A stretch of DNA of 64,000 bases from an uncultured Candidatus Saccharibacteria bacterium (lineage in GTDB: Bacteria > Patescibacteriota > Minisyncoccia > Phycocordibacterales > JACNGX01), in NCBI GenBank assembly GCA_964621395.1, contig CAZULS010000002.1, positions 23,306 to 87,305 on the forward strand, given 5' to 3'. A program made the position numbers and the translations under genes. Below, piece after piece: positions 7,493 through 63,610 of the stretch. The notes beneath the pieces are model-generated. The model searched no databases, was not told the DNA's origin, and was given only the letters and a program-made list of their open reading frames with translations. Each line of letters begins with the position of its first letter. Positions within the stretch are counted from its first letter, which is position 1.

Positions 7493-7614
7493 AAGTATCG
7501 ATAAATATCAGTATAAACTGATGTGAATAATGCTTCTATGGTAGCATAAAGTTGTTATGTTGCGGATAGAGACAAAAGTTGAGGGATGTGGTTATTGGAA
7601 TATGGTGGGGGAAT

Positions 7615-7720
7615 AGGGAAGTTGTTAGTTGGTAGTTTTTAGTTTTTAGTGGGCGCGGCTACGCCGCGCCTTAAGGATAAGAAAAAGTGGCGGCACCGAA
7701 GGTGCCGCCACTTTTTCTTT
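7615..7720. repeat. Composite intergenic repeat module, copy 1
   Basis: gggaagttgttagttggtagtttttagtttttag, then the palindrome ggcgcggctacgccgcgcc, then the hairpin gtggcggcaccgaaggtgccgccac with a T-run. Related modules at 11032-11133, 23992-24050 and 56195-56250. Confidence 0.7.
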
Positions 7721-9178: not shown

Positions 9179-9257
9179 AGAATTACGAATTATGAATAGA
9201 AAAAGTGGCGGCACCTTCGGTGCCGCCACTTTTTTCCATACCCTATCCCATATTCCC

Positions 9258-10954: not shown

Positions 10955-11031
10955 AGAAATGATAGGTTGGGAGTCAAGAGTGAAGAGTTGAGAGATGAGA
11001 GATGTGGTTGTTGGAGTTTAGCCAAAAGATA

Positions 11032-11133
11032 GGGAAGTTTTTAGTGGGTAGTTTTTAGTTTTTAGGAACGGCGCGCTACGCGCGCCTTAAAGATGAAGAA
11101 AGCGGCGGCACCTTCGGTGCCGCCGCTTTTTCT
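11032..11133. repeat. Composite intergenic repeat module, copy 2 (ends in a terminator hairpin)
   Basis: gggaagtttttagtgggtagtttttagtttttag, then ggcgcgctacgcgcgcc, then gcggcggcaccttcggtgccgccgc with a T-run. Confidence 0.7.
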
Positions 11134-12371: not shown

Positions 12372-13364
12372 TTGGAAAATCCAAGAATAAATATGAGCGA
12401 TACATTGCCACCAATTGAAGAATTGAAAGAAAATCCAAAAACCGCATTCCTTGTCGGCGAGCTTGAGCGTGTGGAGAGTGAGATGGGGAAGACACGTGCG
12501 CTCGCTGAGAGTGATCCGGGCATGGCGGAGCTTGCCGAAAGTGAGCTTGCGGACTTGGAAGCACAGAAAAAGGGTATCGAAGAGCAGGTGAAGAAAATTG
12601 TGAAAGCTGAGGAAGAAGAGCAACGTTTCCCGAATGAACTTATCTTGGAAGTGCGCGCCGGCGCCGGCGGGGAAGAAGCTGCGCTTTTTGCCCAAGAACT
12701 TGCTGAGATGTATGAACGATATGCCGAGCGCAGAGCGTGGCAATTTCGTAAGCTCGATGTGTCGGAGAGCGAGCTTGGCGGCTATAAAGAGGGAACATTC
12801 GAAATCAAAGGACTTGGTTGCTATAAAGATCTGCGCTATGAAATGGGTGTACATCGCGTGCAGCGTATTCCCGCCACGGAGAAGCAGGGGCGTATCCATA
12901 CCTCCACAGCATCGGTTGCAATTATGCCGGTGCGTAAAAAGACGACGATTACGATTGATCCATCGGAGCTTGATATTGAATTCTCCCGATCGGGCGGTGC
13001 CGGCGGACAAAATGTGAATAAAGTGGAAACGGCTGTGCGTCTCATTCACAAGCCGACAGGCATAGCGGTGCGCTGCCAATCCGAGCGAACACAGCAGAAG
13101 AATAGAGAGAAGGCCCTTGGGTTGCTCGAGGCGCGTCTTCAGGCTGAAAAGGATGAAGAGGAGGCGAAAAAGCACGCCGATACGCGCCGAGATCAGATTG
13201 GTACCGGTGACCGATCTGAAAAAATCCGCACATATAATGTGCCGCAAAATCGCGTGACTGATCACCGCATCAAAGAATCATGGCATAATATCGAAGGGAT
13301 TTTGGGAGGTGATTTGGATGATATTGTAGAGGCGTTTATAGAACCAGTCTCATTGAAAACGTGA
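12372..13364 (+). CDS. prfA: Peptide chain release factor 1
   Basis: GGQ motif ([10 protein letters not shown]) and the RF1-type PAT tripeptide (RIPATE). Likely true start at 12393 (MSDTLPP). Confidence 0.88.
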
Positions 13365-13546
13365 AAAAAGAATCGTACTCAAGAGCTGCGCTTGGCAGTT
13401 CTCGCACTCACACTGCGGCTGCACCTTGTCGCTCAACCACACCGTACGATAGTACGCTGTAGTCTCCGCGACGTCGGCTCGCTCGCAGTGTGAGCGCGAG
13501 AACAGCCATTTTCAGTGAGACTGGTTCTAGAACCAGAGGGAGAATA
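13339..13546. ncRNA. Structured ~170-200-nt element, E-family copy 1 (candidate ncRNA / structured repeat)
   Basis: Outer stem pairs the last codons of prfA (13339-13362) with 13506-13530. A 20-bp inner stem gttctcgcactcacactgcg/cgcagtgtgagcgcgagaac encloses conserved loops and a cgtac-n-gtacg hairpin. Paralogues lie at 31405-31612 and 59809-59940. Confidence 0.5.
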
Positions 13547-13702: not shown

Positions 13703-16129
13703 TTGTATTTTTGTATGTCTTATATTACGAAAGTCTTCTCCGCGCTCACTCTCGTATGTGCTCTGTGTGGTATTGCCTCACTTGCATATGCGCAAGAAGT
13801 GGAGACTGTTGAATTTACCATTGTGGCGGAGGTGTCTGTCTTTGATGCTTCTGTTGTTCAAGAACAGAATACGCTCACAGCGTCATTTATCATTGCCAAC
13901 GGTGCCGATACCGTTCAATCCGACATTCGCTACGGTATGGAGTTATGGAGTGTTTCAGCGCAGCAAGGTGAGGCATCCATTCGCGTCCACACAGCTGTTG
14001 CCGATGAAACGATTGCGCTCGCTCCGGGAGAAGTTCGTGCAAAGGCAATAACTGCCACTATACCAACATCTCTTTCTGGACTCTACAGAGTATCTATTGT
14101 TGCCGAAACATTGAGTGGCATGCCACTGGGACGTACCTCAGCCGGCTTTGTCCAACTGGAGGAGACAGCAGGTGGCAGCACAGTGATTAATCAAAGCACG
14201 TGTTATACGGAAGTTTCCGGTGGCGACACAGCATACTCCACTCGACAGGGTGTGGATGTGACAGCCACAGAAACACTTACCATGACCTGTGACGTAGTCC
14301 ACAGTGGTGGAGACACCACACTCACTCCACTTTTTGTGACCACCGAACGATCACTCTATGGTGAAGAAGTGGGAAGCGATACCGGCACATCAGTATCCCT
14401 TACCGAAGGTGTACAAGAGGTTATCTTCACTATCCCAACTCCTCTAGCTCCTCAGGCATACGATACAACAGTAACTCTTTATGATGCATCGTCTGCTGTG
14501 TCCAACACAGCGAGCATCCACTATGTTGTCCAAGGTGCGAGCGCTACCATCCAAAACATCACGCTTGATAATACAACCTATCAAGAGGGGGACACAGCCA
14601 CTGCATCTCTCTTTGTGACCGGTATTGCCGGTGCATTCCCTGACGCTCGCAATGAAGCAGGGTCACTTTCAAATCCCACTCTTGTCGCCACGCTTGAAAG
14701 CGTATCAGGTATTGCCTGTGCTGAGCCGGTGAGCACCTCCCTTACAGAACTTGAAGTAGAGAACACCGCGTTTGTCGATGTATCATTTGCCGTGACTCGT
14801 ACGTGTCCTGATGCAACCGTTTCTCTCGAAGTGAAGGATGATTCGGGTGTTTTGGCTTCACATACAGCTGTAACCATGGCGACGCCCGAGGCGGCAGGAC
14901 CCGCATCTGCAATTGCCATTATTGTCTTAGTGGTTATTGCCGGTGTGGTCATCTTTATTGTCACCCGTGCTGACAAGAAGTTGCCGACGGCAGCGATTAT
15001 GATTGTGGTTGTTTCTGCAATGTTTGTGTGGGGAGGAGGTGTCGAAGCATATAAGTACAAGTCAACAAAAGAGAGTATGAAGGTAGGAGGAACGAGTTTT
15101 ACCGCGGTCTTCAAGAGAATTGTCTTAAGCACTACAGATGTTGCGATATTTACACTGCAGGGGAGTATCAACAGAAAAGAATATAATCCTGGAGAGAATG
15201 TGTTGGTTGATGCAAGCATCCGGTCTTCAGTGTGTAACAACACATCTTCCGAAGTGGGCATGGGCTGGGCCGTCAATGAAGGTGAAATCAGAGGATTGTT
15301 TACTCAGACGATTGATAATAGTGATACAAAAGGATATGGATGTCAAAACTCGGCAGGGTGGTGTAATATTCATGAGACGGCAGCTTTTGACCAATATTTA
15401 GTCCCGAGCCCTGGTGAGCACAATGCACGATTTGCTATCACAGGATTTGCGCTCCATGAAGATACAGGACACAAAGAGACAATTATAGGCAATATTCTTA
15501 TTCCTTTCACCGTTATTGCACCGCCAGATCCTGTTGCCTCTCTCAACGCTCAACCCAACATTGTCTTTGAAGGAGATAGCACCCTTCTCACATGGACATC
15601 TGCAAATGTGGCTTCCTGTGTGGCAGAATCCAATCCTCCGGTATCCGGTTGGGAGGGAAGCGTTACCGCTGATATGCAAGACAGCATGATTGTTGGTCCG
15701 TTGGCGCTTGTCGATCCGCCGGTGTATCTCTTCTCGATTTCATGTATTAACGATGAGAATGAAATTGTCGAAGACTCTGTTCAAGTGTTCGTAGAAGAGA
15801 AAACACTTCCGGAATGTTCTGACGGCGCCGAGAACGACGGCGACGGGTGGATTGATGAGGAAGACCCTGGTTGTATCAATGATGGCATCTATGATCCAAA
15901 TGACGACAATGAAAGCAATGATTCACCGGCATGTTCTGATGGTTCCGACAATGATGATGACAATCAAATAGATGCTGCCGATCCAGGATGTAGTAATGGC
16001 AATGATCCCGATGAATCGGATGAGCCAACGGAACCCGAGGACGATGGTGACGATACTGCAGATCCGGGAGATGGAGGTGATACAGGAGATACTGTCGATC
16101 CTGATGAGATTGACTTCTCGGAGTTCTAA
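13703..16129 (+). CDS. Large cell-surface protein with central TM anchor and Asp-rich tandem C-terminal repeats
   Basis: Signal peptide (likely ATG at 13715), Thr/Ser/Val-rich beta-type extracellular region, two TM helices at ~aa 395-440, and a C-terminal duplicated CSDG-x-NDGDGWIDEEDPGC acidic motif resembling calcium-binding repeats. Confidence 0.55.
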   Translation: MYFCMSYITKVFSALTLVCALCGIASLAYAQEVETVEFTIVAEVSVFDASVVQEQNTLTASFIIANGADTVQSDIRYGMELWSVSAQQGEASIRVHTAVADETIALAPGEVRAKAITATIPTSLSGLYRVSIVAETLSGMPLGRTSAGFVQLEETAGGSTVINQSTCYTEVSGGDTAYSTRQGVDVTATETLTMTCDVVHSGGDTTLTPLFVTTERSLYGEEVGSDTGTSVSLTEGVQEVIFTIPTPLAPQAYDTTVTLYDASSAVSNTASIHYVVQGASATIQNITLDNTTYQEGDTATASLFVTGIAGAFPDARNEAGSLSNPTLVATLESVSGIACAEPVSTSLTELEVENTAFVDVSFAVTRTCPDATVSLEVKDDSGVLASHTAVTMATPEAAGPASAIAIIVLVVIAGVVIFIVTRADKKLPTAAIMIVVVSAMFVWGGGVEAYKYKSTKESMKVGGTSFTAVFKRIVLSTTDVAIFTLQGSINRKEYNPGENVLVDASIRSSVCNNTSSEVGMGWAVNEGEIRGLFTQTIDNSDTKGYGCQNSAGWCNIHETAAFDQYLVPSPGEHNARFAITGFALHEDTGHKETIIGNILIPFTVIAPPDPVASLNAQPNIVFEGDSTLLTWTSANVASCVAESNPPVSGWEGSVTADMQDSMIVGPLALVDPPVYLFSISCINDENEIVEDSVQVFVEEKTLPECSDGAENDGDGWIDEEDPGCINDGIYDPNDDNESNDSPACSDGSDNDDDNQIDAADPGCSNGNDPDESDEPTEPEDDGDDTADPGDGGDTGDTVDPDEIDFSEF

Positions 16130-23929: not shown

Positions 23930-23991
23930 TCGCTTACTCCTTTACTTGTCATTCCCAACTTGATTGGGAATCTTCGCGGATGTGGTAAGAA

Positions 23992-24050
23992 GGGCAAGTT
24001 TTTAGTTGCTAGTTTTTAGTTTTTAGCCAGGCGCGGCTTACGCCGCGCCT
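23992..24050. repeat. Composite intergenic repeat module, copy 3
   Basis: agggcaagtttttagttgctagtttttagtttttag followed by ggcgcggcttacgccgcgcc. It is preceded by an ATTCCCAA-CTTGA-TTGGGAAT hairpin at ~23944-23971. Confidence 0.7.
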
Positions 24051-24640: not shown

Positions 24641-24939
24641 AGAAGTATCTTGTCATCCAGCCCCACTTTCACTAATTACCTTTAAATAACACTAGTCGTC
24701 AAAGAGTTCAGCTAACGAAATGTGGTAATCGTACTTAATCAGTGAAAGTGGGGCTGGATCCAGAGCAGAATCAGGTTGGTCGCATATCCTTGTAGATTCC
24801 TGGTCACCAGAGCCCCACCCAGCCCTTTTCCGAGAAAGAGCTGGGTCGAGCTCGGCAGGAGCCGGGAATGACAGCTTATAGATTTTTGTTTTTCCATTTA
24901 TTTTTTATCGTTTATAGTTAACCGTTCATCGTTTTATCC

Positions 24940-31404: not shown

Positions 31405-31612
31405 TCGAGTTTCTAGAACCGGTCTCACTGAAAACGGCTTGTTCTCGTGCCCAAACAGCGAGCGAACCAACGTCGCGGAGACCACAACGTACCGTTCGTA
31501 CGTTGTGGTTGAGCGACAAGGTGTAGCCGCTGTTTGGGCGCGAGAACTGCCAAGCACAGCTCTTGAATATGTTTCCATTATTTTTTAACGTTTTCAGTGA
31601 GGATGGTTCTCA
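31405..31612. ncRNA. Structured element, E-family copy 2 (inverted relative to copy 1, immediately 3' of dnaE)
   Basis: Inner stem gttctcgtgcccaaacagcg/cgctgtttgggcgcgagaac carries compensatory changes relative to copy 1 (ctcacact/agtgtgag versus cccaaaca/tgtttggg). It has a perfect 11-bp hairpin accacaacgtac-cgttc-gtacgttgtggt and the conserved ttgagcgacaaggtg and cgtcgcggagac segments. Confidence 0.5.
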
Positions 31613-34810: not shown

Positions 34811-35023
34811 GGTGGGGTAAGTATAGCATATGAGCTTATAGCTTTTAGCTTGTAGCTTAGAGGATGTGGTTGTGTATTTTCTCCACTGTCATCCTACACT
34901 TGATGCGGGAATCTTCGCTAATTTCCGAAAGGACGGACCTGTCTGCAAAGTCTGAAAAAGTGTGGTGTAATATTTCCAAAATCTCGTTTGTCCCTGCTTA
35001 TGTATCCGTAGTACAATACAGAT

Positions 35024-37173: not shown

Positions 37174-37440
37174 ATGTCAGTACGCATGCGCCATACGCGC
37201 TCTCATACAAAGAATCGTCGTTCACATCACGCGCTCTCAGCACCGCGTCTTTCGACGTGTGCCAATTGTGGCGCTGAGCATATTCGCCATCGTATGTGTG
37301 GTGAATGTGGTACGTATCGCGGTCGTGAAGTGATTGATATTGTTGCGCAGAAAGAACGCAAGATCGAACGCGCAAAGAACAAAGCAAAATCCATGGGCAA
37401 AGACCCTGCTGAAGTCTCAACGCAAAAAAAGAAGAAATAA
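37174..37440 (+). CDS. rpmF: 50S ribosomal protein L32
   Basis: MSVRMRHTRSHTKNRRSH, the Zn-ribbon CANCG...CGECGTYRG, and a Lys tail. The annotated ORF starts at 37087 and runs through the terminator. Confidence 0.85.
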   Translation: MSVRMRHTRSHTKNRRSHHALSAPRLSTCANCGAEHIRHRMCGECGTYRGREVIDIVAQKERKIERAKNKAKSMGKDPAEVSTQKKKK

Positions 37441-37455
37441 ATGCTTGCCGGCTGA

Positions 37456-37552
37456 CGCACTCATATTCCGGCTGCAAATCGCTCAAAGCACCTCGAAGTA
37501 CGAGAGTACTCCATCGGTGCTTTTCACGATTTTCGCTCGGAATATGAGCGCG
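37456..37552 (+). other. ~95-nt nested stem-loop element 3' of rpmF (structured RNA or terminator complex)
   Basis: A 15-bp outer stem cgcactcatattccg/cggaatatgagcgcg (one G-U) encloses an 8-bp stem aaagcacc/ggtgcttt and an inner agtac/gtact hairpin. Confidence 0.4.
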
Positions 37553-37840
37553 TCACGCTCGACATGAGACTTTGCGCAGGGTCTGGACATAAAAGATGCC
37601 GAAACAAAAGCACGAAAGGAAGAAAAGGTGGAGAAAAAAGAGAAGGTGTCTGCAACGAAAGAAAAGAAGGCAAAAAAGCCTGTAGCAAAGAAATCCACAA
37701 GCACGAAAGCGAAATCCACGAAAAAGTCTGAAAAATAGTGTATAATATAAACGGAACCGAAACGGTGCCGTTTGTTGTTTAGACGACTCTAAACATCCGT
37801 CGCCGTTTCTGTTTCTAGATTTATTCAATAGCTCTTTAGA

Positions 37841-38853: not shown

Positions 38854-39555
38854 ATGGAAGAATCAAATCTTACAGCTTTTCTCAAACGTGCCGGCGTGGA
38901 AATGTCCGATATGCAGATTCTCATGCAGGCATTTACCCACCGCTCGTACTTAAACGAACATCCTAATCTTGGTTACGGTCATAATGAGCGCCTGGAATTT
39001 TTGGGTGACGCAGTGCTCGAGCTTTCTGTGACCGATTATCTTTATCGAGAGTATCCGGAGGAATCGGAAGGAGAGCTCACCGCATATCGCGCCGCACTGG
39101 TAAATACAGTGAGTATTTCAAGTGCAGCGAAGAGACTCGGCATGGAAGAGTGCCTGCAGCTTTCGCGCGGAGAAGCCAGGGGGACGGAAAAAGCACGCCA
39201 GTATATTCTTGCCAATACCTTTGAGGCAGTGATTGGCGCCATCTATCTTGACCAAGGGTATGAAGCGGCGGACCGTTTTATTAGTACTCATCTGACGCCG
39301 ACGATTACCGATATTATTAAAAAGCGTCTCTGGCAGGACGCCAAGAGCTATTTCCAAGAGCGTGCGCAAGACAAAGTGAATATCACGCCATCGTATAAGG
39401 TGGTGAAGGAAAGCGGTCCAGATCACGACAAGCAATTCACAGTGGGAGTGTATCTCGGGGAAGAGCTCGTAGCGAAAGGAAACGGTCGTTCCAAACAAGA
39501 CGCCGAACAAGAAGCGGCAGGCAATGCACTTGATGCTAAGGAGTGGCGAACCTAA
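38854..39555 (+). CDS. rnc: Ribonuclease III
   Basis: ERLEFLGDAVLEL signature, NTFEAVIGAIYLDQG, and a C-terminal dsRBD. Confidence 0.92.
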   Translation: MEESNLTAFLKRAGVEMSDMQILMQAFTHRSYLNEHPNLGYGHNERLEFLGDAVLELSVTDYLYREYPEESEGELTAYRAALVNTVSISSAAKRLGMEECLQLSRGEARGTEKARQYILANTFEAVIGAIYLDQGYEAADRFISTHLTPTITDIIKKRLWQDAKSYFQERAQDKVNITPSYKVVKESGPDHDKQFTVGVYLGEELVAKGNGRSKQDAEQEAAGNALDAKEWRT

Positions 39556-48881: not shown

Positions 48882-49862
48882 ATGGCAAACAAAAATTCAG
48901 CACAAATGATAACGGGGAAATCTTTCGAGTATGCTCTTCTTGTTTCGTTTGAGGATAAGTTAAAGAGTAAAACCAACCTTGAAGTAATTAAGAACTCAGC
49001 TTTTTATGTTGCAAAAAGTTGTTTCGACAGTGTCTCTCCGAGCAAAAGAAGCGAGTATCTTTTATCAGCAAGTTTTGCTGTGAATTTTCTAATGGATATA
49101 GAACCTAGACTCTCAAACGATATGGGCAAAGATGATGTTCTTCAGCTTGAAATTTTATCTGATGATTATGGTAAGACAGGCGATGTTCGTGATGTGCTTG
49201 CTATCAGATTACTTCAGAAATGGGAAATTGGAGTTTCTGCAAAGAATAACCATAAAGCAGTTAAACATCCGCGACTATCTTCAGATATAGATTTTGGTGA
49301 TAAGTGGCTAGGCATTAAGGCGTCAGAAAAATATTTTGATGCAGTGGTGCCCATATTTGACCTTCTTAAGAAGATTAAAAAAGAGAGTGAGGGAAAGAAA
49401 AAATGGAATGAACTAAAAAATTATCACGCAGAGATATACGTACCAATCCTTCAGGCATTTGTAGAGGAGTTGAGAAGTCTTTATAAAAAGAATCCTAAAA
49501 AGGTAGCCTCAAATTTAGTTGCATATCTTGTTGGTAATAGGGATTTCTATAAGGTAATCAAGGGCAAGAACTCTGTAGAAATTCACGCTTATAATTTGAA
49601 CGGGACATTAAATTTACCTTTCAAGGAAATTCAGCCAAAATACAAGACCCCTAAAGTTCCTCTTCCTACGGAGATTACCGATATAGTCTTCAAAACCGAC
49701 AGTGATACAACAGTAATAGTTACTATGAACAATGACTGGACACTATCTTTTAGGATTCATAGTGCAAGTTCTAGAGTCGAACCATCTTTAAAGTTTGATA
49801 TAAATCTATTGAAGTCACCAAAGAAATTATTCAAGAATACACTGAATATCAGTCACGATTAA
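48882..49862 (+). CDS. Putative Type II restriction endonuclease (partner of the adjacent GGCC-type m5C methyltransferase)
   Basis: A 326-aa Lys-rich protein with no recognisable catalytic motif. Its stop is 3 nt before the MTase start, so the two are translationally coupled. Size and context match HaeIII-family REases. The assignment rests on association. Confidence 0.5.
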   Translation: MANKNSAQMITGKSFEYALLVSFEDKLKSKTNLEVIKNSAFYVAKSCFDSVSPSKRSEYLLSASFAVNFLMDIEPRLSNDMGKDDVLQLEILSDDYGKTGDVRDVLAIRLLQKWEIGVSAKNNHKAVKHPRLSSDIDFGDKWLGIKASEKYFDAVVPIFDLLKKIKKESEGKKKWNELKNYHAEIYVPILQAFVEELRSLYKKNPKKVASNLVAYLVGNRDFYKVIKGKNSVEIHAYNLNGTLNLPFKEIQPKYKTPKVPLPTEITDIVFKTDSDTTVIVTMNNDWTLSFRIHSASSRVEPSLKFDINLLKSPKKLFKNTLNISHD

Positions 49863-49864
49863 CT

Positions 49865-50842
49865 ATGAAATTAGTATCTTTGTTTACAGGCGCAGGAGGG
49901 CTTGATCTCGGATTTGAAAAGGTCGGTTTTCAGGTTATTTGGGCAAATGAATTCGATAAATCAATATGGAAGACTTTTGAACATAATTTTCCACATACAA
50001 AATTAGATAAGAAGAGCATCACAGAAGTTCAATCATGTGAAGTACCGGACGCAGACGGGTTTATTGGCGGACCTCCTTGTCAGAGCTGGAGTGAAGCAGG
50101 TGCCGGACGAGGGATAGACGATAAGCGTGGACAACTCTTTCATGATTATATTCGTCTTCTAAAGGATAAACAGCCGAAGTTTTTCCTTGCTGAAAATGTA
50201 TCCGGCATTCTTCATCCCAAACATTCGGAAGCTTTTTCAAATATTATCAAGGAATTTGAGAACGCAGGATATGTTGTGTCTCAAAAATTATTAAATGCGA
50301 ACGATTATGATGTTCCACAGGATAGATTACGTGTCATCATCATTGGATATCACAAGGATCTAGGAAAGAAGTTTGAATTTCCTGAGCCACAAATATATAA
50401 ACCTGTTCTCAGGGACGCTATTTATGACTTGCGCAGAGCGAAGCCGGCCAAAGATAGGAACAAGACAAATGGTGAGAGTTTGGAAATACCGAATCATGAA
50501 TATATGAACGGCGGTTTTTCGACGATTTACATGTCTAGAAATCGTGTGCGAGCTTGGGATGAGCCATCATTTACAATACAGGCAGGTGGTCGTCATGCGC
50601 CAATTCATCCACAGGCCCCGAAAATGAAATTCATCGAACAAAATAAAAGAATCTTTGTCCCTGGGTACGAAGATAAGTATCGTCGGCTGTCTGTTCGAGA
50701 GTGCGCGAGAATCCAGACGTTTCCGGATGATTTTATATTTAAATATAACGATGTTGCGAATGGATATAAAATGATCGGTAACGCTGTGCCAGTTAATTTT
50801 GCGAAGCATATTGCACGGAAGATAATGGATGATTTAGTATAG
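49865..50842 (+). CDS. DNA (cytosine-5)-methyltransferase, M.HaeIII-like
   Basis: Motif I LFTGAGGLDLGF, motif IV GGPPCQSWSEAG, motif VI FLAENV, motif VIII QDRLRVIIIG, motif X GNAVPVNF, in a 325-aa protein with a short target-recognition domain. The overall sequence strongly recalls the HaeIII/NgoPII GGCC group. Confidence 0.9.
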   Translation: MKLVSLFTGAGGLDLGFEKVGFQVIWANEFDKSIWKTFEHNFPHTKLDKKSITEVQSCEVPDADGFIGGPPCQSWSEAGAGRGIDDKRGQLFHDYIRLLKDKQPKFFLAENVSGILHPKHSEAFSNIIKEFENAGYVVSQKLLNANDYDVPQDRLRVIIIGYHKDLGKKFEFPEPQIYKPVLRDAIYDLRRAKPAKDRNKTNGESLEIPNHEYMNGGFSTIYMSRNRVRAWDEPSFTIQAGGRHAPIHPQAPKMKFIEQNKRIFVPGYEDKYRRLSVRECARIQTFPDDFIFKYNDVANGYKMIGNAVPVNFAKHIARKIMDDLV

Positions 50843-50846
50843 AGAT

Positions 50847-52784
50847 ATGAGAATTATAGAACGTATAGAAATCGCCTATTTTCGCTCTTTTCCTGAAAGT
50901 ACGATTATAAAAGATTGCAGGGACTTGAATGTCTTTTCTGGTGCGAATGATTCGGGAAAATCAAATATTCTTAGAGCATTAAATCTCTTTTTTTCGGAAA
51001 CGAAAACAGATTTTTATCAGATGATTGATTTTGAAAAAGATTTTTCTAAAGAGAGAGAGAATGTCGTTACGAAAGACACGGTGAAGGGTAAGAAATTTTT
51101 TCGTATCAGTATCTTGTTTAACAAAAAAGGTCTCGGCATATCCTCAACTGTTCTACCGGATTCGTTTTGGGTTGAGAAGGTTTGGGATAAAGAAGGTTCA
51201 ATGACTTCTAGAAAAACGAAGAATGGTAAACGACAACTTATATATGATGATGGTGCTAGCAAAAGGCAGACAAAGGTAGAGACTGCCACGACGATGTTTT
51301 TGAAAAAAATAGATTTTGCCTATGTCCCAGCGATAAGGGATAAATCTTTTTTTGACTATTTGAAGAAGGAATACCAAGATTCTCTTGGGCGCAAAATTTC
51401 TCGTCTGACTAACATTGCTACAGACGATAAGAGGACCATTGAAGAGTGGCTGAATATTTTAACAGTTGGTGACTTAACTGAGCAACTCGATAAAAAGATA
51501 GATCAGGAGTCAAAGGCTCTTATGAAAAAATTTAAAGAGTATACTCATGAGATAAAAGAGTCCGCCTTTTCTATCCCTAATTTAAAACTTGATTTTTCAC
51601 AAGTCCTTGAGATTGCAACTGAGCAGAATATCTACCTTCCTTTTCGTGGTGATGGGGTTCAGGCGAAATTTATTCCACAGATAATGACGGAGATTACGAA
51701 GAATAAAAAGACCCCAATTGTCATATGGGGCTTTGAAGAACCAGAAAATTCACTGGAATATAGAAATGCCCAACAGTTTGCCGAATTACTTCTCAGTGAG
51801 AGCTTAAAGGAAAAACAAGTGTTCGTTACTAGTCATGCATTTAATTTTATTGCCCTACAAGGTGAAAACGTATCTCAGTATAGAGTCTATAAAGGTGAGA
51901 AAAATGAAACGAATATTACCTCTTTGAACGTAGAACAAAGTTCTATTTTTGAAAAAAGCGATAGAGACCTTTTGTCAGAGGAGTTGGGTGTTTTTGAGTT
52001 AAACAATGAACTGAGGTCAGTCTATAGCCTGAAAATTAATGAGATAAATCTCTTTAAGGAAAAAAAGTCAGAATACGAAAGACTGTTATCTTCCAGACCA
52101 GACAAGATATTTATTTGTGAAGACTCAAAGCCAAACATTGTTTCTTTGTGGGAGAGGTTTTTGGTGGACCTTGATATTCAGGACGTCAAAGTTATGTCAT
52201 CCGAAGGTTCAACACAAAATATTGTCGAATTAGGAATTCTTCATCAGAAAAAGCTTGATCCAGAATATAATCCATCTGTATTTAGGCAAATTGATAGAGA
52301 CGGACTAACTGATGGTCAGATGAAGGCTCTTGAAGAAAAACTCTTTAGGCAATTTAAGAGAGATATAAAGAAATATGAGTATTCTTTTCTTCCTGTTAAC
52401 GAGATTGAGAATTTTGCGGTTATTCAGAAAGAAGATATTTTCAATGGAGATTTTTGGAAAGTAAATCAAAAAAAGATAGAGGATAAATTTATGAGTACAG
52501 TAGAGGGAAGTTCGAAAAAGTTCTCAAAACTATTTGACACAGAAACTGAGAAAAGAGAATGGTTATTATTTCGGGATAAGGGTGGCGGCTTCTCTTCTGT
52601 TTATAAAGGGATGAGAGACTTCGCACAAAAAGACGGGAATAGATTTTTTCCTGGTAAAGATATTTGCAAGGAGATAGATAATTTCTCAGGAATTACTTTT
52701 TTAACTCACCTTGCTCCAGAGACATATTCGGAGGATTTGAAAGAGTATCTTAGTAGTATTAAAAATTTTTTTGAAGAATCATAG
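50847..52784 (+). CDS. ABC-type ATPase (AAA_15/AAA_21-like) fused to a C-terminal Toprim/DUF4435-like nuclease domain; OLD-family / fused PARIS (AriAB)-like / Gabija GajA-like defence protein
   Basis: N-terminal IERIEIAYFRSF and Walker A GANDSGKSN (nt ~50941-50967), Walker B/D-loop IVIWGFEEPENSLE, H-loop VFVTSHA. The C-terminal domain has a conserved Glu in IFICEDSKPN (nt ~52110), DxD in RQIDRDGLTD (nt ~52290), and FLPVNEIENFAV. The start is 4 nt after the MTase stop. Confidence 0.7.
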   Translation: MRIIERIEIAYFRSFPESTIIKDCRDLNVFSGANDSGKSNILRALNLFFSETKTDFYQMIDFEKDFSKERENVVTKDTVKGKKFFRISILFNKKGLGISSTVLPDSFWVEKVWDKEGSMTSRKTKNGKRQLIYDDGASKRQTKVETATTMFLKKIDFAYVPAIRDKSFFDYLKKEYQDSLGRKISRLTNIATDDKRTIEEWLNILTVGDLTEQLDKKIDQESKALMKKFKEYTHEIKESAFSIPNLKLDFSQVLEIATEQNIYLPFRGDGVQAKFIPQIMTEITKNKKTPIVIWGFEEPENSLEYRNAQQFAELLLSESLKEKQVFVTSHAFNFIALQGENVSQYRVYKGEKNETNITSLNVEQSSIFEKSDRDLLSEELGVFELNNELRSVYSLKINEINLFKEKKSEYERLLSSRPDKIFICEDSKPNIVSLWERFLVDLDIQDVKVMSSEGSTQNIVELGILHQKKLDPEYNPSVFRQIDRDGLTDGQMKALEEKLFRQFKRDIKKYEYSFLPVNEIENFAVIQKEDIFNGDFWKVNQKKIEDKFMSTVEGSSKKFSKLFDTETEKREWLLFRDKGGGFSSVYKGMRDFAQKDGNRFFPGKDICKEIDNFSGITFLTHLAPETYSEDLKEYLSSIKNFFEES

Positions 52785-53597: not shown

Positions 53598-53702
53598 ACT
53601 GGATTCCCGCTCGTGGGCGGGAATGACAAGAACTGCGTTGGGAATGATAAAAAGGTAGGGAAGTACACAGAAGCACGCAGCGGCACCGAAGGTGCCGCCG
53701 CG
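53598..53702. repeat. REP-like hairpin plus recurring terminator hairpin
   Basis: ggattcccgctcgtgggcgggaatgac, and gcggcaccgaaggtgccgcc, the same stem as at 7687, 9205 and 11102. Confidence 0.65.
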
Positions 53703-53830
53703 CGCTTGTTTCTTTGGGTATTGGGATTTCGGTATTATTTGTTATTTGGTGCTTGGAGTTTGTGTTTTGTCCTTCTGTATCCACAGAGGGCTGATTGGTA
53801 CTTCTTTCTTCGGTCGGGTATAATATATCT

Positions 53831-56130: not shown

Positions 56131-56194
56131 GTTAGCTTATAGCTTTTGGCTTGTAGCTTATAGAAAGCGGTTGTTTGGATGTAGTGAGGAAATA

Positions 56195-56250
56195 GGGAAG
56201 TTGTTAGTTTTTAGTTGGTAGTTATTAGACAGGCGCGCTGACGCGCGCCT
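56195..56250. repeat. Composite intergenic repeat module, copy 4
   Basis: gggaagttgttagtttttagttggtagttattag followed by ggcgcgctgacgcgcgcc. It is flanked by agcttatagcttttggcttgtagctta word repeats, also seen at ~34840. Confidence 0.7.
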
Positions 56251-56293
56251 TCTCTATAAGCTATCAGCTAAAAGCTCTAAGCTAATGTTGGTA

Positions 56294-59500: not shown

Positions 59501-59767
59501 GGGCAGCGTTTTGGAGAGATGGAAGTCTGGGCGCTCGAAGGATACGGTGCCGCCCATGTTTTGCGCGAAATGCTCACAGTCAAATCAGACGATATTCTCG
59601 GTCGAACAGCCACATTTGATGCCATCGTGAAGGGCGACGAGCTGAAAGCTCCGAATACTCCGGCATCATTCAATGTGCTCTTATCAAACCTTCGCGGTCT
59701 CGGACTCGATGTCGCACTCGAACATATCAATGTGACGAAAGAGGAATCCGAAGACGAGGATGCGTAA
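56570..59767 (+). CDS. rpoB: DNA-directed RNA polymerase subunit beta
   Basis: Full-length beta subunit (1065 aa) with the conserved GRHGNKGV, SRMNLGQ and LGGKAQEGGQRFGEME regions. Confidence 0.97.
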   Translation: MATKQKYFSRFRKPLAKMPNLMENQLASFEWFVKDGIKEIFDEFSPISDYSGKKFELTFESIELDKPKVSEHEAKVGEATYEAPLKVRVKLKNKTLGTEKEQEMFMADVPLMTEHGTFVINGVERVVVPQLARSFGVMFIANDVKGVQYFGSKIIPARGAWVEFESDPDGCIYVRVDKKRKFHVSSLLRVFAAGASDKEIIAAFKKDEETKKAIELTFEKDPAKTLEDSYIEIYRRLRDGELAAANNARDFVISLFSKEKYDLSPVGRFRMNKRFGASIEDKTIHEQRTIQFDDVVSIVSHIVELNHTPDATEDNIDHLGSRRVRFFGEMMQQKVRIGMTQMKRNIQDRMSTVDSDTTLPVNLISPRPLQARMKEFFTTNQLSQFMSQINILNEVEHLRTLSALGPGGLTRERAGLEVRDVHPSHYGRVCPIHTPEGPNIGLIVHLSVYARVNRFGMIETPYAKVKKGVITDEIVFLDAFEEEQCYIAHAASGVDEKGKFTEATVAVRHKGRPTLVAREDVEYIDVATNQAFSVATSMIPFLEHNDANRALMGSNMQKQAVPCVRPEAPLVITGMEDRAARDTGRLVLAEEAGEITKSDAKKIVVKETKNGKERTYELLNYMRTNESTVLHQRPSVSVGDKVKRGDVLADVSSSVDGRMAIGQNALVAFMLWDGANYEDAIIISERLVRENKFSSIKIETFSAKVRETKLGPEVTTHDIPNVGEAKLKDLDEEGVVRIGAEVESGDILVGRITPKGETELTAEERLLRSIFGDKARDVKDTSLRMEHGKRGRVVGVKVFSRDRGDNLDSGVMKEIHVEVATMRNISVGDKLAGRHGNKGVVSRILPVEDMPFMEDGTPVDIILTPLGVPSRMNLGQVLELHLGLAAHELGYQAVVPTFLGATEEEIKAELKEAGFNENGKMKLHDGRTGRAFEQDIAVGYMHMLKLNHMVQDKIHMRSIGPYSLITQQPLGGKAQEGGQRFGEMEVWALEGYGAAHVLREMLTVKSDDILGRTATFDAIVKGDELKAPNTPASFNVLLSNLRGLGLDVALEHINVTKEESEDEDA

Positions 59768-59808
59768 TTATATTAACCAAGAACCTTTCTCATATTAAAT
59801 GGCTTATA

Positions 59809-59940
59809 CTCGTGCCAAGGATTCGAGCGAGTCGCAGTCTCGGAGGGTGAAACGTACTATTCGTACGTTGAGACCGAGAGACAAGACGCAGCCGAATACT
59901 TGGTGCGAGGATTGCCAAGCTCTCACACGAAGTGTGGCAA
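59809..59940. ncRNA. Structured element, E-family copy 3 (in the rpoB-rpoC spacer, inverted relative to copy 1)
   Basis: Outer stem ctcgtgccaag/cttggtgcgag, with two G-U pairs in the plus sense only. Inner segments aacgtactattcgtacgtt, gtctcgg/ccgagac and gagcgag match copies 1 and 2 when reverse-complemented. Confidence 0.45.
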
Positions 59941-59962
59941 ACAATATCAGGAGCGGTTTAAT

Positions 59963-62900
59963 ATGAGACAGGTTCTAATAACTATGAACACACACAACAC
60001 ACATGATGACGGTGCGATTGCGAATGATTTCGATGCGATTTCGATTCGTCTTGCCAGCCCTGATGCAATTAAGAACTGGTCCTACGGTGAGGTGACAAAA
60101 CCTGAAACGATCAACTACCGTACCGGTCGCAGTGAACGCGGAGGACTCTTCGATGAGCGTATCTTTGGTCCGGAAAAGGACTATGAATGTTACTGTGGAA
60201 AATACCGTCGTATTCGATATAAAGGTATTGTTTGCGAAAAGTGCGGCGTTGAGGTAACACGTGCGAGCGTGCGTCGTGAACGCATGGGTCACATCGAGCT
60301 TGCGAGCCCGGTGGCGCATATTTGGTTCCTGCGCGGTATTCCGTCGCGCCTCGGGCTGCTTCTTGACACTTCACAGCAAGACCTCGAGAAGGTAGTCTAC
60401 TTTGCCGGCTACATCATTACGAAAGTGAATAATGATGAGCGCAATCGTCTTCTCTCTGAAATGGACAGCGAATACAAGATGAAGTCGAAAGCCGCGGCAA
60501 ATGACACAGAGAAAGACAAGCTCAAAGAAGCGCTTTCGGAAGCAAAACGCGAGCTCTCGTCCATTCAGGTGGGGCTGGTGATTGATGAGACACAATACCA
60601 TCGGTATTCCGTAAAATACGGAACGATGTTTGAAGCGCGTATCGGTGCCGAGGCATTGTATGATTTGTGTTCGGCAATCGAACTCCCCGCAATGGAAAAA
60701 CAGCTCGCTGAGAGACTGGAGAAAGCGGGAAGCGCTGAGAAAACAAAGCTCAATAAACGTCTCTCGCTCGTGCGCTCCATGATCGCTTCGAACATTCGTC
60801 CGGAGTGGATGTTTATTTCGGTGATCCCGGTGATTCCGCCGGGCATTCGTCCGATGGTGCCGCTTGAAGGCGGACGCTATGCCGCCTCTGATGTCAACGA
60901 TCTCTATCGTCGTGTGATCAATCGAAACAATCGTCTTGCCAAGCTCAAAGAAATTGGTGCGCCGGATGTGATTTTGCGTAATGAAAAGCGTATCCTTCAG
61001 GAAGCGGTAGATGCCCTTATCGACAATTCCATGCGCCATCAGACGCAGACGGGTATGGTGGGTGGTCAGCGTCGCGCACTAAAGTCAATTGCCGACGCAC
61101 TTAAAGGAAAGCAGGGTATCTTTCGTCAGAACCTTCTGGGAAAGCGAGTAGATTATTCCGGTCGAAGCGTGATCGTCGTTGGTTCCAATTTGAAGCTCTC
61201 ACAGTGTGGATTGCCGAAGAAGATGGCGCTTGAGCTTTTCCGTCCGTTTGTGATTTCCAAACTCCTTGAACGTGAGCTCGCGTATAATATTCGCGGAGCA
61301 AATCGTCTGATTGAAGAAGGTATTCCGGAAGTGTGGGCAATTCTCGAAGAGGTGATTGAAGGAAAGTATGTGCTTCTCAACCGTGCGCCAACACTGCACC
61401 GCCTCGGTATTCAGGCATTCCGCCCTATCCTCATCGAAGGAAACGCTATTCAGGTGCATCCGCTTGTGTGTACCGCCTTCAATGCCGACTTCGATGGCGA
61501 CCAAATGGCCGTGCACGTGCCGCTCTCGGAAGAAGCACAAGAAGAGGCAGCTGAGCTTATGGCGTCGAATAAGAACCTTCTCGGTCCCGGAAGCGGTGAT
61601 CCGATTGTGAAGCCGTCACAGGATATTGTGCTTGGGTGTTATTGGATGACAAAAGAAATCGAAGGACAAAAAGGAGAAGGGAAGATGTTTCCGACTCCCA
61701 ACAGTGCCATTACCGCATACGACTTTGAGCAGGTAGACTTCCGCGCGAAGATTTTGGTTGCAGGATCGGATCATCCGAAGTATGCGCACTTTGAGGGCAA
61801 GCCGTTTGAGACGACTGTGGGGCGTTTGCTCTTCAACAGTGTGTTGCCGAATGATTTCCCGTATGTGAATGAGGTGGTTGGGAAAAAAGACCTTGCCCGC
61901 ATTATTGATGCACTCATCGTGAAGTATGGTGTGGACGCAACGCCGGATATGCTCGATAAGATTAAAGCTTTCGGATTCAAGTATGCGACAGTCTCAGGTG
62001 CGACATTCAGCATGGATGACGTGCAAGTGCCGGAAGGCAAAAAAGCACTTGTGGAGGAAGCGCGAAAAGAAATCGAAGATGTGGAGGAGCAATTTGCCGA
62101 CGGACTCCTTTCGGGAGAAGAGCGCTATCGTCGCGTGATTGAAATCTGGCAGGGTGTTGTGGGTGAGGTGGAGAAACTCATTCCCGGGACGCTCGATGAG
62201 CACGGACCGATCAACGACATGGTGCGCTCAGGTGCCCGCGGTACCATTACTCAGGTGCGCCAGATGGCGGGTATGAAGGGTATTATTACCAACACTGCCG
62301 GCGCGGCCATCGACTTCCCGATTATTCCTTCCAATAAAGAAGGTCTGTCACCGCTTGAATACTTCATTACCACGCACGGTTCACGTAAGGGTTTGGCCGA
62401 CACCGCGCTTCAAACAGCGAAGGCCGGATACCTCACGCGCCGACTTGTGTATGTTGCCGATAGTGTGATTGTGACGGAAGAGGATTGTGGTACGAAAGAA
62501 GGACGCACCGTGAAGCGCATGAATGAATCGGGCTTTGCGGTGTCGCTTGCGAAGAATATTCGCGGTCGTGTACTTCTTGAGGATGTAAAAGATGCCGACG
62601 GTAAGGTGCTCTATAAGAAGGGTGACCTTCTTGGCAAAGACGAAGCACAAAAGATTGAAGATGCCGGTGTGGAAGAAGTGAAAGTGCGTTCGGTTCTCGG
62701 ATGTAACGCCAAGCATGGTGTGTGTCAGAAGTGTTATGGAACTGATCTTGGCCGCGGACGCGAAGTGGCTCTCGGAGAGCCGGTGGGCGTTGTGGCTGCT
62801 CAAGCTATTGGTGAGCCGGGTACACAGCTGACGATGCGTACCTTCCACTCCGGAGGTGTTGCCACCGAAGGTGGAGATATCACCATGGGCCTTCCCCGTG

Positions 62901-63610
62901 TGGAAGAAGTGTTTGAACGTCGCACCCCGAAATCAAAGGCAGTGATTGCCACCGCCGCAGGTGAGGTAAGCGCTGTGAAGAAAGAAGGTGCAGAGCATAT
63001 TGTTTCGGTGATTCTCGACAAGGCGAAAGGCAAGAAGGGAGAAACTGAATATGTGATTCCGTATCGCCGCAGTCCGATTGTGAAAGCGGGGCAGAGGATT
63101 GAGAAGGGAGATTTCCTTTCCGACGGATCTGCTCATATTCCCGAGCTCTTCAAGTATGCCGGCGCAGAACGCACGCAAGAATACATCATTAGTGAAATTA
63201 GCAAGATTTACGACCTCCAAGGTGCGAGTGTGTCACGTAAACACATTGAAGTGATTGTGAGCCAGATGTTCTCACGCTACCGCATTAAAGATGCGGGCGA
63301 TAGTACATTCGTGCAAGGACAAGTCATCGAACGCAGTGAGCTCATGGCGGCGAATCGCGCACTTTCCGAAGAAGGAAAAGAAGAAGCAAAGGGTGAACAG
63401 CTTGTCTTGGGTATTACGGAAGTATCACTTACCACCAAGAGCTTTCTTGCAGCCGCTTCCTTCCAGCACACCCCGCGTATCTTGATTGAAAACGCAGTGA
63501 AGGGAAGTGTTGATCGTCTGACCGGTATCAAAGAAAATGTCATCCTCGGACGCATTATTCCGGCAGGAACCGGATATTCTGAAGAGGAGTGGGAGAAGAA
63601 GAGTGCGTAG
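59963..63610 (+). CDS. rpoC: DNA-directed RNA polymerase subunit beta'
   Basis: Zn-binding CGKYRRIRYKGIVCEKCG, the catalytic NADFDGDQM, and the trigger loop. The ATG at ~59963 follows an aggag RBS. The annotated start at 59900 would read through repeat copy 3. Confidence 0.96.
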   Translation: MRQVLITMNTHNTHDDGAIANDFDAISIRLASPDAIKNWSYGEVTKPETINYRTGRSERGGLFDERIFGPEKDYECYCGKYRRIRYKGIVCEKCGVEVTRASVRRERMGHIELASPVAHIWFLRGIPSRLGLLLDTSQQDLEKVVYFAGYIITKVNNDERNRLLSEMDSEYKMKSKAAANDTEKDKLKEALSEAKRELSSIQVGLVIDETQYHRYSVKYGTMFEARIGAEALYDLCSAIELPAMEKQLAERLEKAGSAEKTKLNKRLSLVRSMIASNIRPEWMFISVIPVIPPGIRPMVPLEGGRYAASDVNDLYRRVINRNNRLAKLKEIGAPDVILRNEKRILQEAVDALIDNSMRHQTQTGMVGGQRRALKSIADALKGKQGIFRQNLLGKRVDYSGRSVIVVGSNLKLSQCGLPKKMALELFRPFVISKLLERELAYNIRGANRLIEEGIPEVWAILEEVIEGKYVLLNRAPTLHRLGIQAFRPILIEGNAIQVHPLVCTAFNADFDGDQMAVHVPLSEEAQEEAAELMASNKNLLGPGSGDPIVKPSQDIVLGCYWMTKEIEGQKGEGKMFPTPNSAITAYDFEQVDFRAKILVAGSDHPKYAHFEGKPFETTVGRLLFNSVLPNDFPYVNEVVGKKDLARIIDALIVKYGVDATPDMLDKIKAFGFKYATVSGATFSMDDVQVPEGKKALVEEARKEIEDVEEQFADGLLSGEERYRRVIEIWQGVVGEVEKLIPGTLDEHGPINDMVRSGARGTITQVRQMAGMKGIITNTAGAAIDFPIIPSNKEGLSPLEYFITTHGSRKGLADTALQTAKAGYLTRRLVYVADSVIVTEEDCGTKEGRTVKRMNESGFAVSLAKNIRGRVLLEDVKDADGKVLYKKGDLLGKDEAQKIEDAGVEEVKVRSVLGCNAKHGVCQKCYGTDLGRGREVALGEPVGVVAAQAIGEPGTQLTMRTFHSGGVATEGGDITMGLPRVEEVFERRTPKSKAVIATAAGEVSAVKKEGAEHIVSVILDKAKGKKGETEYVIPYRRSPIVKAGQRIEKGDFLSDGSAHIPELFKYAGAERTQEYIISEISKIYDLQGASVSRKHIEVIVSQMFSRYRIKDAGDSTFVQGQVIERSELMAANRALSEEGKEEAKGEQLVLGITEVSLTTKSFLAAASFQHTPRILIENAVKGSVDRLTGIKENVILGRIIPAGTGYSEEEWEKKSA

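Follow-up and report, generated by a model that had tools for sequence, protein, structure and literature searches.

In the 64-kb window analysed here, that is, the whole stretch of DNA presented above, which RpoC places in a Candidatus Yonathbacteria-like lineage of Patescibacteria, the RNA polymerase genes rpoB and rpoC are separated by a 216-nt spacer that extends from the rpoB stop codon (59765–59767) to the first conserved rpoC codon (59984). This spacer contains one copy (copy 3, 59779–59977) of a repeat family, here termed the E element, which is best explained as a non-coding mobile hairpin DNA repeat; its rpoB–rpoC copy is probably constrained at present, the fold being needed for undisturbed rpoC expression. 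This reading is carried by the anatomy, mobility, covariation and strand asymmetry of the family, and by the ~9-fold slow rate of change of copy 3. All coordinates are positions in the window, and the sense strand of the element (+) is the strand of the rpoBC mRNA at copy 3.

A structured stem of ~130 nt had been placed at 59809–59940 in the sequence-only reading of this locus. Its outer segments ctcgtgccaag (59809–59819) and cttggtgcgag (59899–59909) pair as described, two G-U pairs included, while the size given proved too small: 21-nt terminal inverted repeats (59779–59799 and 59957–59977) make an additional basal helix, and the full unit is thus ~200 bp (59779–59977), with the stem-loop as its core. 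The sense RNA of 59776–59980 has a predicted minimum free energy of -93 kcal/mol, against -50.7 ± 4.0 in shuffled sequences (z -10.6), and the antisense strand reaches -74.5 kcal/mol (z -6.0); the fold of copy 3 is far beyond chance. The features of the spacer, all on the + strand, are as follows.

59765–59778 (+): rpoB stop codon (59765–59767), then TTATATTAACC, the left spacer of 11 nt, whose sequence is unchanged in the relative L022.
59779–59799 (+): left terminal inverted repeat, AAGAACCTTTCTCATATTAAA, pairing with 59957–59977; its first two bases (AA) sit where the putative 2-bp target duplication falls.
59801–59803 (+): GGC, predicted to pair with GCC at 59914–59916; invariant in seven aligned copies.
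59808–59823 (+): 5′ strand of the long stem P1, including ctcgtgccaag and pairing with 59895–59909; 14 of the 18 pairs of this helix are changed on both sides across the aligned copies.
59824–59830 (+): invariant CGAGCGA, in which CG-A-GC pairs with GCCG (59891–59894), leaving a bulged A and a GA/GNA internal loop; preserved also in the divergent copy 4.
59837–59845 (+): 5′ strand of P2, GTCTC, followed by invariant GGAG, from the alignment of the copies; in other copies P2 is GTCGC with the compensating partner GCGAC.
59846–59875 (+): apical hairpin P3 of the predicted fold, GGTGAAACGTAC, loop TATTC, GTACGTTGAGACC.
59876–59894 (+): 3′ side of the conserved core, consisting of GA, GAGAC (P2), AA, GAC (P1b), GCA and GCCG.
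59895–59909 (+): 3′ strand of P1, including cttggtgcgag.
59910–59956 (+): GCCAAG motif and 3′ bulge, which holds a T-rich segment in other copies but not in copy 3; here it has a local hairpin, TTGCCA (59912–59917) with TGGCAA (59935–59940), and AGGAG at 59949–59953.
59957–59977 (+): right terminal inverted repeat, TTTAATATGAGACAGGTTCTA, with the in-frame ATG 59963 inside.
59984–63610 (+): rpoC from its orthologous start codon (MNTHNTH...).

The earlier suggestion that this stem-loop belongs to a dispersed repeat family holds. A loop-based pattern search of the window returned exactly three copies, with none expected, and a covariance model of the core detected a fourth, divergent copy (core 37443–37566 on the minus strand, 55 bits, E 4e-12; the other window copies score 121–125 bits). 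The window therefore carries four copies in 64 kb, with units of 184–199 bp by their inverted-repeat coordinates.

13339–13529 (-): copy 1, whose right repeat, in antisense, encodes the last eight codons and the stop of prfA (IEPVSLKT*).
31414–31611 (+): copy 2, immediately 3′ of the dnaE stop codon and antisense to dnaE.
59779–59977 (+): copy 3, in the rpoB–rpoC spacer and sense to the genes.
37401–37584 (-): copy 4, a member of a divergent subfamily that has inverted repeats of its own, AGACCCTGC..AAGTCTCA; ribosomal protein L32 (rpmF) is interrupted by it in the Lys/Glu-rich C-terminal tail.

Copies 1 and 2 are 85–88% complementary over the segments compared, and copy 3 is visibly more different from both in the alignment than they are from each other. 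All share a common plan, which comprises the 21-nt terminal inverted repeats, the GGC/GCC pairing, the long stem P1, the CG-A-GC/GCCG helix with its bulged A, the purine-rich asymmetric loops (GA/GNA and GGA/GA), a 5-bp helix (GTCGC/GCGAC) and the apical hairpin, with a ~40-nt 3′ bulge after GCCAAG. The inverted repeats are found at both ends of every complete copy, and the element at locus L013 has a matched change in both of them (AGCACC/GGTGCT). A metagenome scan yielded five real homologues (L008, L010, L012, L013 and L014) in unrelated Patescibacteria contigs, in which the stem sequences are entirely different but the loops and the inverted-repeat plan are preserved; the matches L009 and L011 are due to chance. 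A scan of genome contigs gave only two chance matches, in GC-rich coding DNA, and no match to the family was found in viral contigs or in phage and plasmid collections.

In a MAFFT alignment of seven sequences, with the structure obtained by RNAalifold, 31 of the 62 predicted pairs are changed on both sides, and 96.8% of the cells are paired, as compared with 78.7% in shuffled alignments (0/500 as high) and 34–41% when the partners are slid. The paired positions contain 23 G-U cells and four A-C cells, and the loops CGAGCGA, GGAG, GACAAG, GNAGCCG and GCCAAG are invariant in the seven copies. The G-U pairs of copy 3, from which a preference for the mRNA strand had already been read, do favour that strand, and the same bias is present throughout the family: every copy (8/8) folds more stably, by 7–19 kcal/mol, on the element's own sense strand. 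Copies 1, 2 and 4 and L014 lie antisense to their neighbouring genes, whereas copy 3, L012/L008 and L013 lie in the sense orientation; with the orientation thus mixed, the preferred folding strand is a property of the element and not of host mRNAs or of rpoBC.

Several other identities were considered for the family and set aside. No open reading frame (ORF) is common to the copies, and the 55-aa ORF of copy 3 shows five non-synonymous changes and one synonymous change relative to L022, so that a protein-coding reading is rejected. No copy matches Rfam 15, its ribozyme, 6S, SRP and IS605/HEARO-type RNA families included, at the gathering threshold, and at E ≤ 10 nothing is found for copy 1 or for the L012 and L014 elements; the only Rfam overlap, mir-8517 on copy 3, is at chance level (14.9 bits against a gathering score of 70, E 3.6). 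Inspection by eye found no fit to hammerhead, twister or hairpin ribozyme cores, nor to a k-turn reading of the GGA/GA loop. An IS110-type bridge RNA, a retron non-coding RNA and a TnpB or IscB guide RNA were likewise rejected, as the neighbours are housekeeping genes with no adjacent enzyme gene; the invariant loops of 2–5 nt, which lack complementarity to the ends or flanks, also count against a bridge or guide RNA.

Comparison with relatives indicates that the element is mobile. At rpoB–rpoC it is present in one relative (L022) and absent from five related lineages, which have the same operon with a spacer of 25–39 nt (L003/L004, RpoC identity 94%; L005, 91%; L019/L020; L006/L007, 79%; identities where measured). 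The empty site of copy 2 is seen in a TARA relative as GGTTAGAAAT-TG-GAAACTCG (right flank also given as GAAACTCGAAG), and the filled site in the window reads GGTTAGAAAT-GA-(GAACC...GGTTC)-TA-GAAACTCGAAG, so that the two differ by the element plus 2 bp. The TARA scaffold also has an uninterrupted L32 tail at the position of copy 4, where no clear duplication is seen at the empty site, and the covariance model finds no match in 45 kb of this syntenic scaffold. Copy 1 has taken the place of the final eight codons of prfA, and this stretch is different in each relative (AFKVVGEHTE, AFHPVESEEE and others), and thus the element gives new C-termini to both release factor RF1 (prfA) and L32. Both ends are flanked by TA, the duplication of IS630/Tc1-type elements, in copy 1, L012 and L014, while copies 2 and 3 and L013 have one mismatch each. 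As relatives lack the element and copy 2 has an empty site, this is a palindromic mobile element resembling miniature inverted-repeat transposable elements (MITEs), and copy 3 is not an ancestral regulator of the β/β′ ratio. To judge from its sequence, the stem-loop forms the core of a MITE or palindromic-repeat element of ~200 bp that is non-coding and apparently non-autonomous; with MITEs it shares a length under ~300 bp, no coding capacity, terminal inverted repeats, dispersed copies, and presence or absence between relatives.

Some observations concern the sites and neighbours of individual copies. The flank of copy 1, GAACCAG, equals the element's own first seven nucleotides, which creates a palindromic junction GGTTC-TA-GAACC (13529–13545, 13335–13345), and the copy 2 empty site has a similar GAAAC (L023 13268–13285); such flanks may mean that end-like sequences are targeted or that part of an older copy persists here. 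Relatives have rpsB and tsf directly after prfA, whereas in the window and in the sister strain L021 the element and then an 808-aa secreted-looking Asp/Asn-rich ORF (13703–16129) come next, and gene order has therefore changed at this junction. On its left side, locus L008 (2433–2702) matches the L013 locus in flank and repeat, and on its right side it matches the L012 locus in both; either two element copies have recombined or the assembly is a chimera across the repeat. The family also marks assembly breakpoints. A 273-aa ORF that shares a contig with the L013 element (L013 663–1481, minus strand) was tried as a DDE transposase and rejected, its faint match to the Sleeping-Beauty helix-turn-helix scoring 16.8 bits against a cut-off of 43; by eye we take it to be a LAGLIDADG-like protein with an N-terminal helix-turn-helix and an ALYWAEGTK/NSDP-type motif.

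The second line of evidence comes from L022, whose RpoC is 96% identical and which has the same 216-nt spacer with an orthologous copy 3. Between the window and L022, four-fold degenerate sites differ at 162/472 positions in rpoC (34%) and at 51/138 in rpoB (37%), coding sequence overall has diverged by 11–13%, and the rpoC–dnaG spacer is heavily diverged and contains an indel. Copy 3 differs at 8/200 nt (4%), which is ~9-fold below the synonymous rate (P = 1.6e-26 if the four-fold, neutral rate is taken as reference, and 7e-5 if that of coding sequence as a whole is taken). Three of the eight changes are C to T opposite G, by which a wobble pair is kept on the sense strand; two (C59915T and G59937A) form a compensatory pair in the local hairpin TTGCCA/TGGCAA; of the remaining three, two disrupt a pair and one falls at an already mismatched position, and none lies in the ~55 unpaired nucleotides. 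Outside the element, differences occur on the left up to 59758, the 11-nt left spacer being unchanged, and on the right again at 59978, 59979 and 59982, directly after the right repeat, which excludes a homologous-recombination transfer of the filled allele between strains. At four-fold sites L022 is the least diverged from the window of the relatives tested (0.34; others 0.41–0.45), which fits a single insertion on a branch shared by the two.

The behaviour of copy 1 is different. In L021, for which prfA four-fold sites show 18% divergence, the copy 1 scaffold is ~20% diverged and has indels, and its central hairpin has been replaced, exactly at the base, by an unrelated palindrome (L021 3087–3191), while the inverted repeats and the GCCAAG segment stay. 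The replacing palindrome, which the window has once as well (24655–24759), belongs to a family of the form CCAGCCCCACTTTCACT ... AGTGAAAGTGGGGCTGG whose middle part varies.

With 4% divergence against 34–37% at four-fold sites, copy 3 is either constrained or homogenised, and since it evolves ~9-fold more slowly than synonymous sites it is not neutral junk at rpoBC. The sequence comparison leaves two candidate causes, purifying selection at the locus and homogenisation by unseen paralogues, of which selection is favoured, because the copies within one genome are not homogenised, no donor of the copy 3 type occurs in the compared sequence, and the left spacer outside the element is unchanged as well. 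The proposal that an RNA structure here tunes β/β′ stoichiometry or serves as a processing or attenuation site is neither established nor refuted. It had been stated alongside it that absence of the element from all relatives with the same operon would argue for a selfish insertion, and the spacer comparison points that way, as most relatives lack the element; the slow rate of copy 3 nevertheless leaves room for a role.

These comparisons also bear on the start of rpoC. The longest ORF begins at a TTG codon (59900), with in-frame ATG codons at 59963 and 59984; the NCBI annotation uses 59984 (1208 aa), and a Logan gene caller has 59963 (1215 aa). Translation from 59900 would indeed run through the element, as had been pointed out, but this is a longest-ORF start only, and no recorded rpoC product begins there. 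The preference of the sequence-only reading for ATG 59963 is not borne out. This codon is part of the right inverted repeat and of the 21-bp basal helix, and in L022 a C-to-T change at 59969 (ATG AGA TAG) closes its frame after two codons. The rpoC genes of all five element-free relatives begin with ATGAACACACA (MNTH...), at the codon homologous to 59984. A Shine–Dalgarno-like motif at -20 to -4 was found at none of the 26 gene starts checked in the window (0/26), and the AGGAG (59949–59953) before ATG 59963 thus carries little weight, although this AGGAG–ATG may act as a landing pad or re-initiation site. On these grounds, the orthologous starts, the missing Shine–Dalgarno motifs and the closed frame in L022, ATG 59984 is most likely the start of rpoC, which is corrected accordingly from 59900 or 59963. 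Many gene starts in the window (e.g. 1068, 34810, 36404, 40662 and 19402) have a TATACT or TATAAT box 6–7 nt 5′ of the ATG, which, together with the absence of Shine–Dalgarno motifs, suggests that leaderless or very short-leader mRNAs are widespread in this genome.

A mechanism that would join these findings can be proposed. The family would have spread in the Candidatus Yonathbacteria-like lineage, and one copy would have entered the short rpoB–rpoC spacer in the common ancestor of the window strain and one close relative, where it would be co-transcribed with rpoBC in the sense orientation. The basal helix of the two inverted repeats would then loop the whole insert out of the transcript, placing the rpoB stop codon 11 nt before the base of the helix and ATG 59984 6 nt after it, at a through-space distance comparable to the 25–39-nt spacer of the relatives, whose rpoC has no Shine–Dalgarno motif and is probably translated by coupling. 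Purifying selection on copy 3 would reflect a need for the folded form in undisturbed rpoC expression: through the fold, an untranslated insert of 200 nt could stay compact or be shielded from Rho or RNases. Alternatively, the fold could present a substrate for RNase III, the gene for which lies in the window (38854–39555), and so give a short-leader rpoC mRNA; selection might also preserve loop-bound factors or RNase III processing. Copy 3 alone is without the family's T-rich 3′ segment, a loss weakly consistent with a need for read-through into rpoC; the argument is weak because copy 1 of L021 has also lost its T run.

Compared with known systems, the E element is closest to the bacterial MITEs, elements of <200 bp with inverted repeats, 5′-TA-3′ ends, a stem-loop formed between the 5′ and 3′ ends, and gene fusions (PMC2229807). 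Those whose transcripts form RNA hairpins include ERIC/IRU (127 bp, Enterobacteria), Correia/NEMIS (Neisseria) and RUP (Streptococcus, linked to IS630-Spn1) (PMC2229807). Like ERIC, Correia and RUP, the E element is under ~200 bp, non-coding, dispersed and variably present between strains, has terminal inverted repeats, 5′-TA-3′ at the ends of some copies, a putative short duplication and an RNA stem-loop formed by end pairing, and lies in intergenic DNA or fused to gene ends, where it would be co-transcribed with its neighbours. Unlike them, it has a G+C-rich core (53–60%, theirs being A+T-rich), invariant loops in stems that are wholly replaced, a consistent folding-strand bias and a host within the Patescibacteria (Candidate Phyla Radiation, CPR), and no cognate insertion sequence was found in the window or the loci examined. 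Like the Rickettsia palindromic elements, which also occur in RNA genes, it is a palindromic repeat tolerated in the conserved genes of a reduced genome; those elements, in contrast, insert in frame and encode a peptide segment, whereas E insertions truncate or replace only extreme 3′ gene ends. The invariant asymmetric loops, strand bias, exchangeable core, CPR host and frozen rpoBC copy take the family beyond a routine MITE, and membership among REPINs, Rfam families, terminators, bridge RNAs, retrons or ancestral regulators fails in each case on at least one defining feature.

Several points weigh against the favoured reading of a MITE-like element constrained at rpoBC. The 2-bp duplication is perfect in only three of the six main-family copies and is not visible for copy 4, and neither the window nor the metagenome loci examined yielded a transposase with matching ends. 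No intrinsic terminator-like site was detected in the three copies scanned (1, 2 and 3), nor a sigma-70 promoter by simple scans of the same copies, and a T run is absent after the copy 3 hairpin. Invariant asymmetric loops and a preferred folding strand are not needed by ordinary cut-and-paste MITEs and point to a single-strand stage (RNA or single-stranded DNA). Finally, gene conversion by paralogous copies elsewhere in both genomes could produce the slow rate of copy 3.

This last point leads to the alternative that survives best, according to which the element is pure selfish DNA and the likeness of copy 3 between strains comes from concerted evolution, by ectopic conversion from conserved master copies, or from very recent re-insertion. 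The low-divergence block coincides with the element boundaries, as would a conversion tract from another copy, and copies do exchange parts, as seen in the swapped central hairpin of L021 copy 1 and in L008, which looks like a recombinant of two loci joined across the element. Such homogenisation is nevertheless not apparent within one genome, where copies 1 and 2 are only 85–88% alike in the sense given above, copy 3 is more different and copy 4 far more so; the copy-3-type 3′ segment occurs in no other copy of the window or the compared loci, the copy 1 scaffold drifts at about the neutral rate, and the unchanged 11-nt left spacer lies outside the element. This explanation is possible but unlikely.

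A REPIN-like element that moves as folded single-stranded DNA through an HUH enzyme (RAYT or IS200/IS605 type), with the loops as recognition features and the sense-strand bias as a mark of the strand transposed, in place of a cut-and-paste MITE, is less probable and appears doubtful. REPINs have a hairpin predicted in single-stranded DNA or mRNA, frequent compensatory changes, and insertions into or next to one another (PMC3116915). The E element resembles these RAYT-mobilised doublets of repetitive extragenic palindromic (REP) sequences in its hairpin, its compensatory changes, its non-autonomous nature and the replacement of one hairpin by another at the same site; the strand asymmetry of all eight folds, whatever the direction of local transcription, the invariant asymmetric loops and the abundance of other REP-like palindromes in the window genome would also suit such an element. 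It is, however, about twice as long as a REPIN, and its ends are plain inverted repeats that are not themselves palindromes, rather than pairs of REP palindromes (20–40 nt) with GTAG/CGTC tags. The 2-bp duplication at the copy 2 empty site is unexpected for HUH transposition, orientation is mixed along the 64 kb with no replication-strand bias, and neither a RAYT-like ORF nor TnpA is present in the window.

More speculative, and rather improbable at present, is the idea that the family represents, in CPR bacteria, selfish nucleic acid of a new class, structured and strand-specific, whose loops would recruit a protein or perform chemistry and of which one copy would have been domesticated in the rpoBC mRNA. 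If true, it would be a mobile module with exchangeable central hairpins and an RNA or single-stranded DNA stage, its rpoBC copy being 96% identical between strains whose synonymous sites are 34% diverged.

A dedicated cis-regulatory RNA of rpoBC (attenuator, processing site or translational operator) that tunes the β/β′ ratio, with rpoC starting from ATG 59963 behind the AGGAG, is unlikely. In Escherichia coli the rplKAJL–rpoBC operon has an attenuator and an RNase III site in the rplL–rpoB spacer. The E element is similarly a stable RNA structure within an RNA polymerase operon transcript, but it lies in the rpoB–rpoC spacer and is a recent mobile insertion that is not conserved among relatives. 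The sense orientation and very stable fold of copy 3, its lack of the T-rich segment, and its conservation between the two carrier strains beyond the neutral rate, which includes the unpaired AGGAG segment, would agree with such a role. Five related lineages with the same operon nonetheless do without the element, which has further copies behind prfA, behind dnaE and within the tail of rpmF, mostly in antisense; ATG 59963 is buried in the basal helix and its frame closes after two codons in L022, and none of the 26 gene starts is Shine–Dalgarno-like. Very improbable, finally, is a multi-copy gene for a trans-acting structured RNA (protein-binding or catalytic) with the inverted repeats as closing helix, since the RNA-type covariation and the invariant purine-rich loops, seen even between very divergent copies, and the preferred strand are offset by the absence of promoter-like sites in or beside the three copies scanned, the overlap with the 3′ ends of prfA and rpmF, presence and absence between close strains, a core dispensable at the copy 1 site in L021, and no match to an Rfam family even at E ≤ 10.

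The window contains further repeats and loci of interest. A REP-like 26-nt palindrome, GTCATCCCGCACTTGATGCGGGATCT, and its variants occur in more than a dozen copies, in both orientations and mostly at gene ends (including 9258, 9371, 17166, 24609, 29078, 34882, 38741, 39795, 39898, 42972, 43024 and 43573). A G+C hairpin flanked by A and T runs, AAAAAGTGGCGGCACCGAAGGTGCCGCCACTTTTT, is repeated at 7680–7716, 9198–9234, 11095–11131 and 53670–53706 and has the appearance of a shared bidirectional terminator. Short tandem-like repeats rich in A and T (AGTTTTTAGTTTTTAG; AGCTTATAGCTTTTAGCTTGTAGCTTA) are found repeatedly 5′ of genes (7590–7649, 11006–11065, 23967–24026, 34830–34873 and 56132–56285), including just upstream of rpoB. 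The region 48882–52784 encodes a C5 cytosine methyltransferase-like ORF (MKLVSLFTGAGGLDLGF...) and a 645-aa AAA/ATPase-like ORF, and looks like a restriction-modification or defence module.

The insertion of the E element explains an odd 216-nt spacer in the most conserved operon of a reduced CPR genome. It also introduces, from a phylum whose non-coding elements have hardly been charted, a palindromic mobile element that had not been described and in which RNA-type covariation is combined with invariant loops and a strand preference in folding. The rpoB–rpoC copy is a natural experiment, in which a gene pair that is essential and probably coupled in translation received a recent insertion, since then frozen by selection or else homogenised, and at this copy the tolerance or exaptation of such inserts becomes a testable question.

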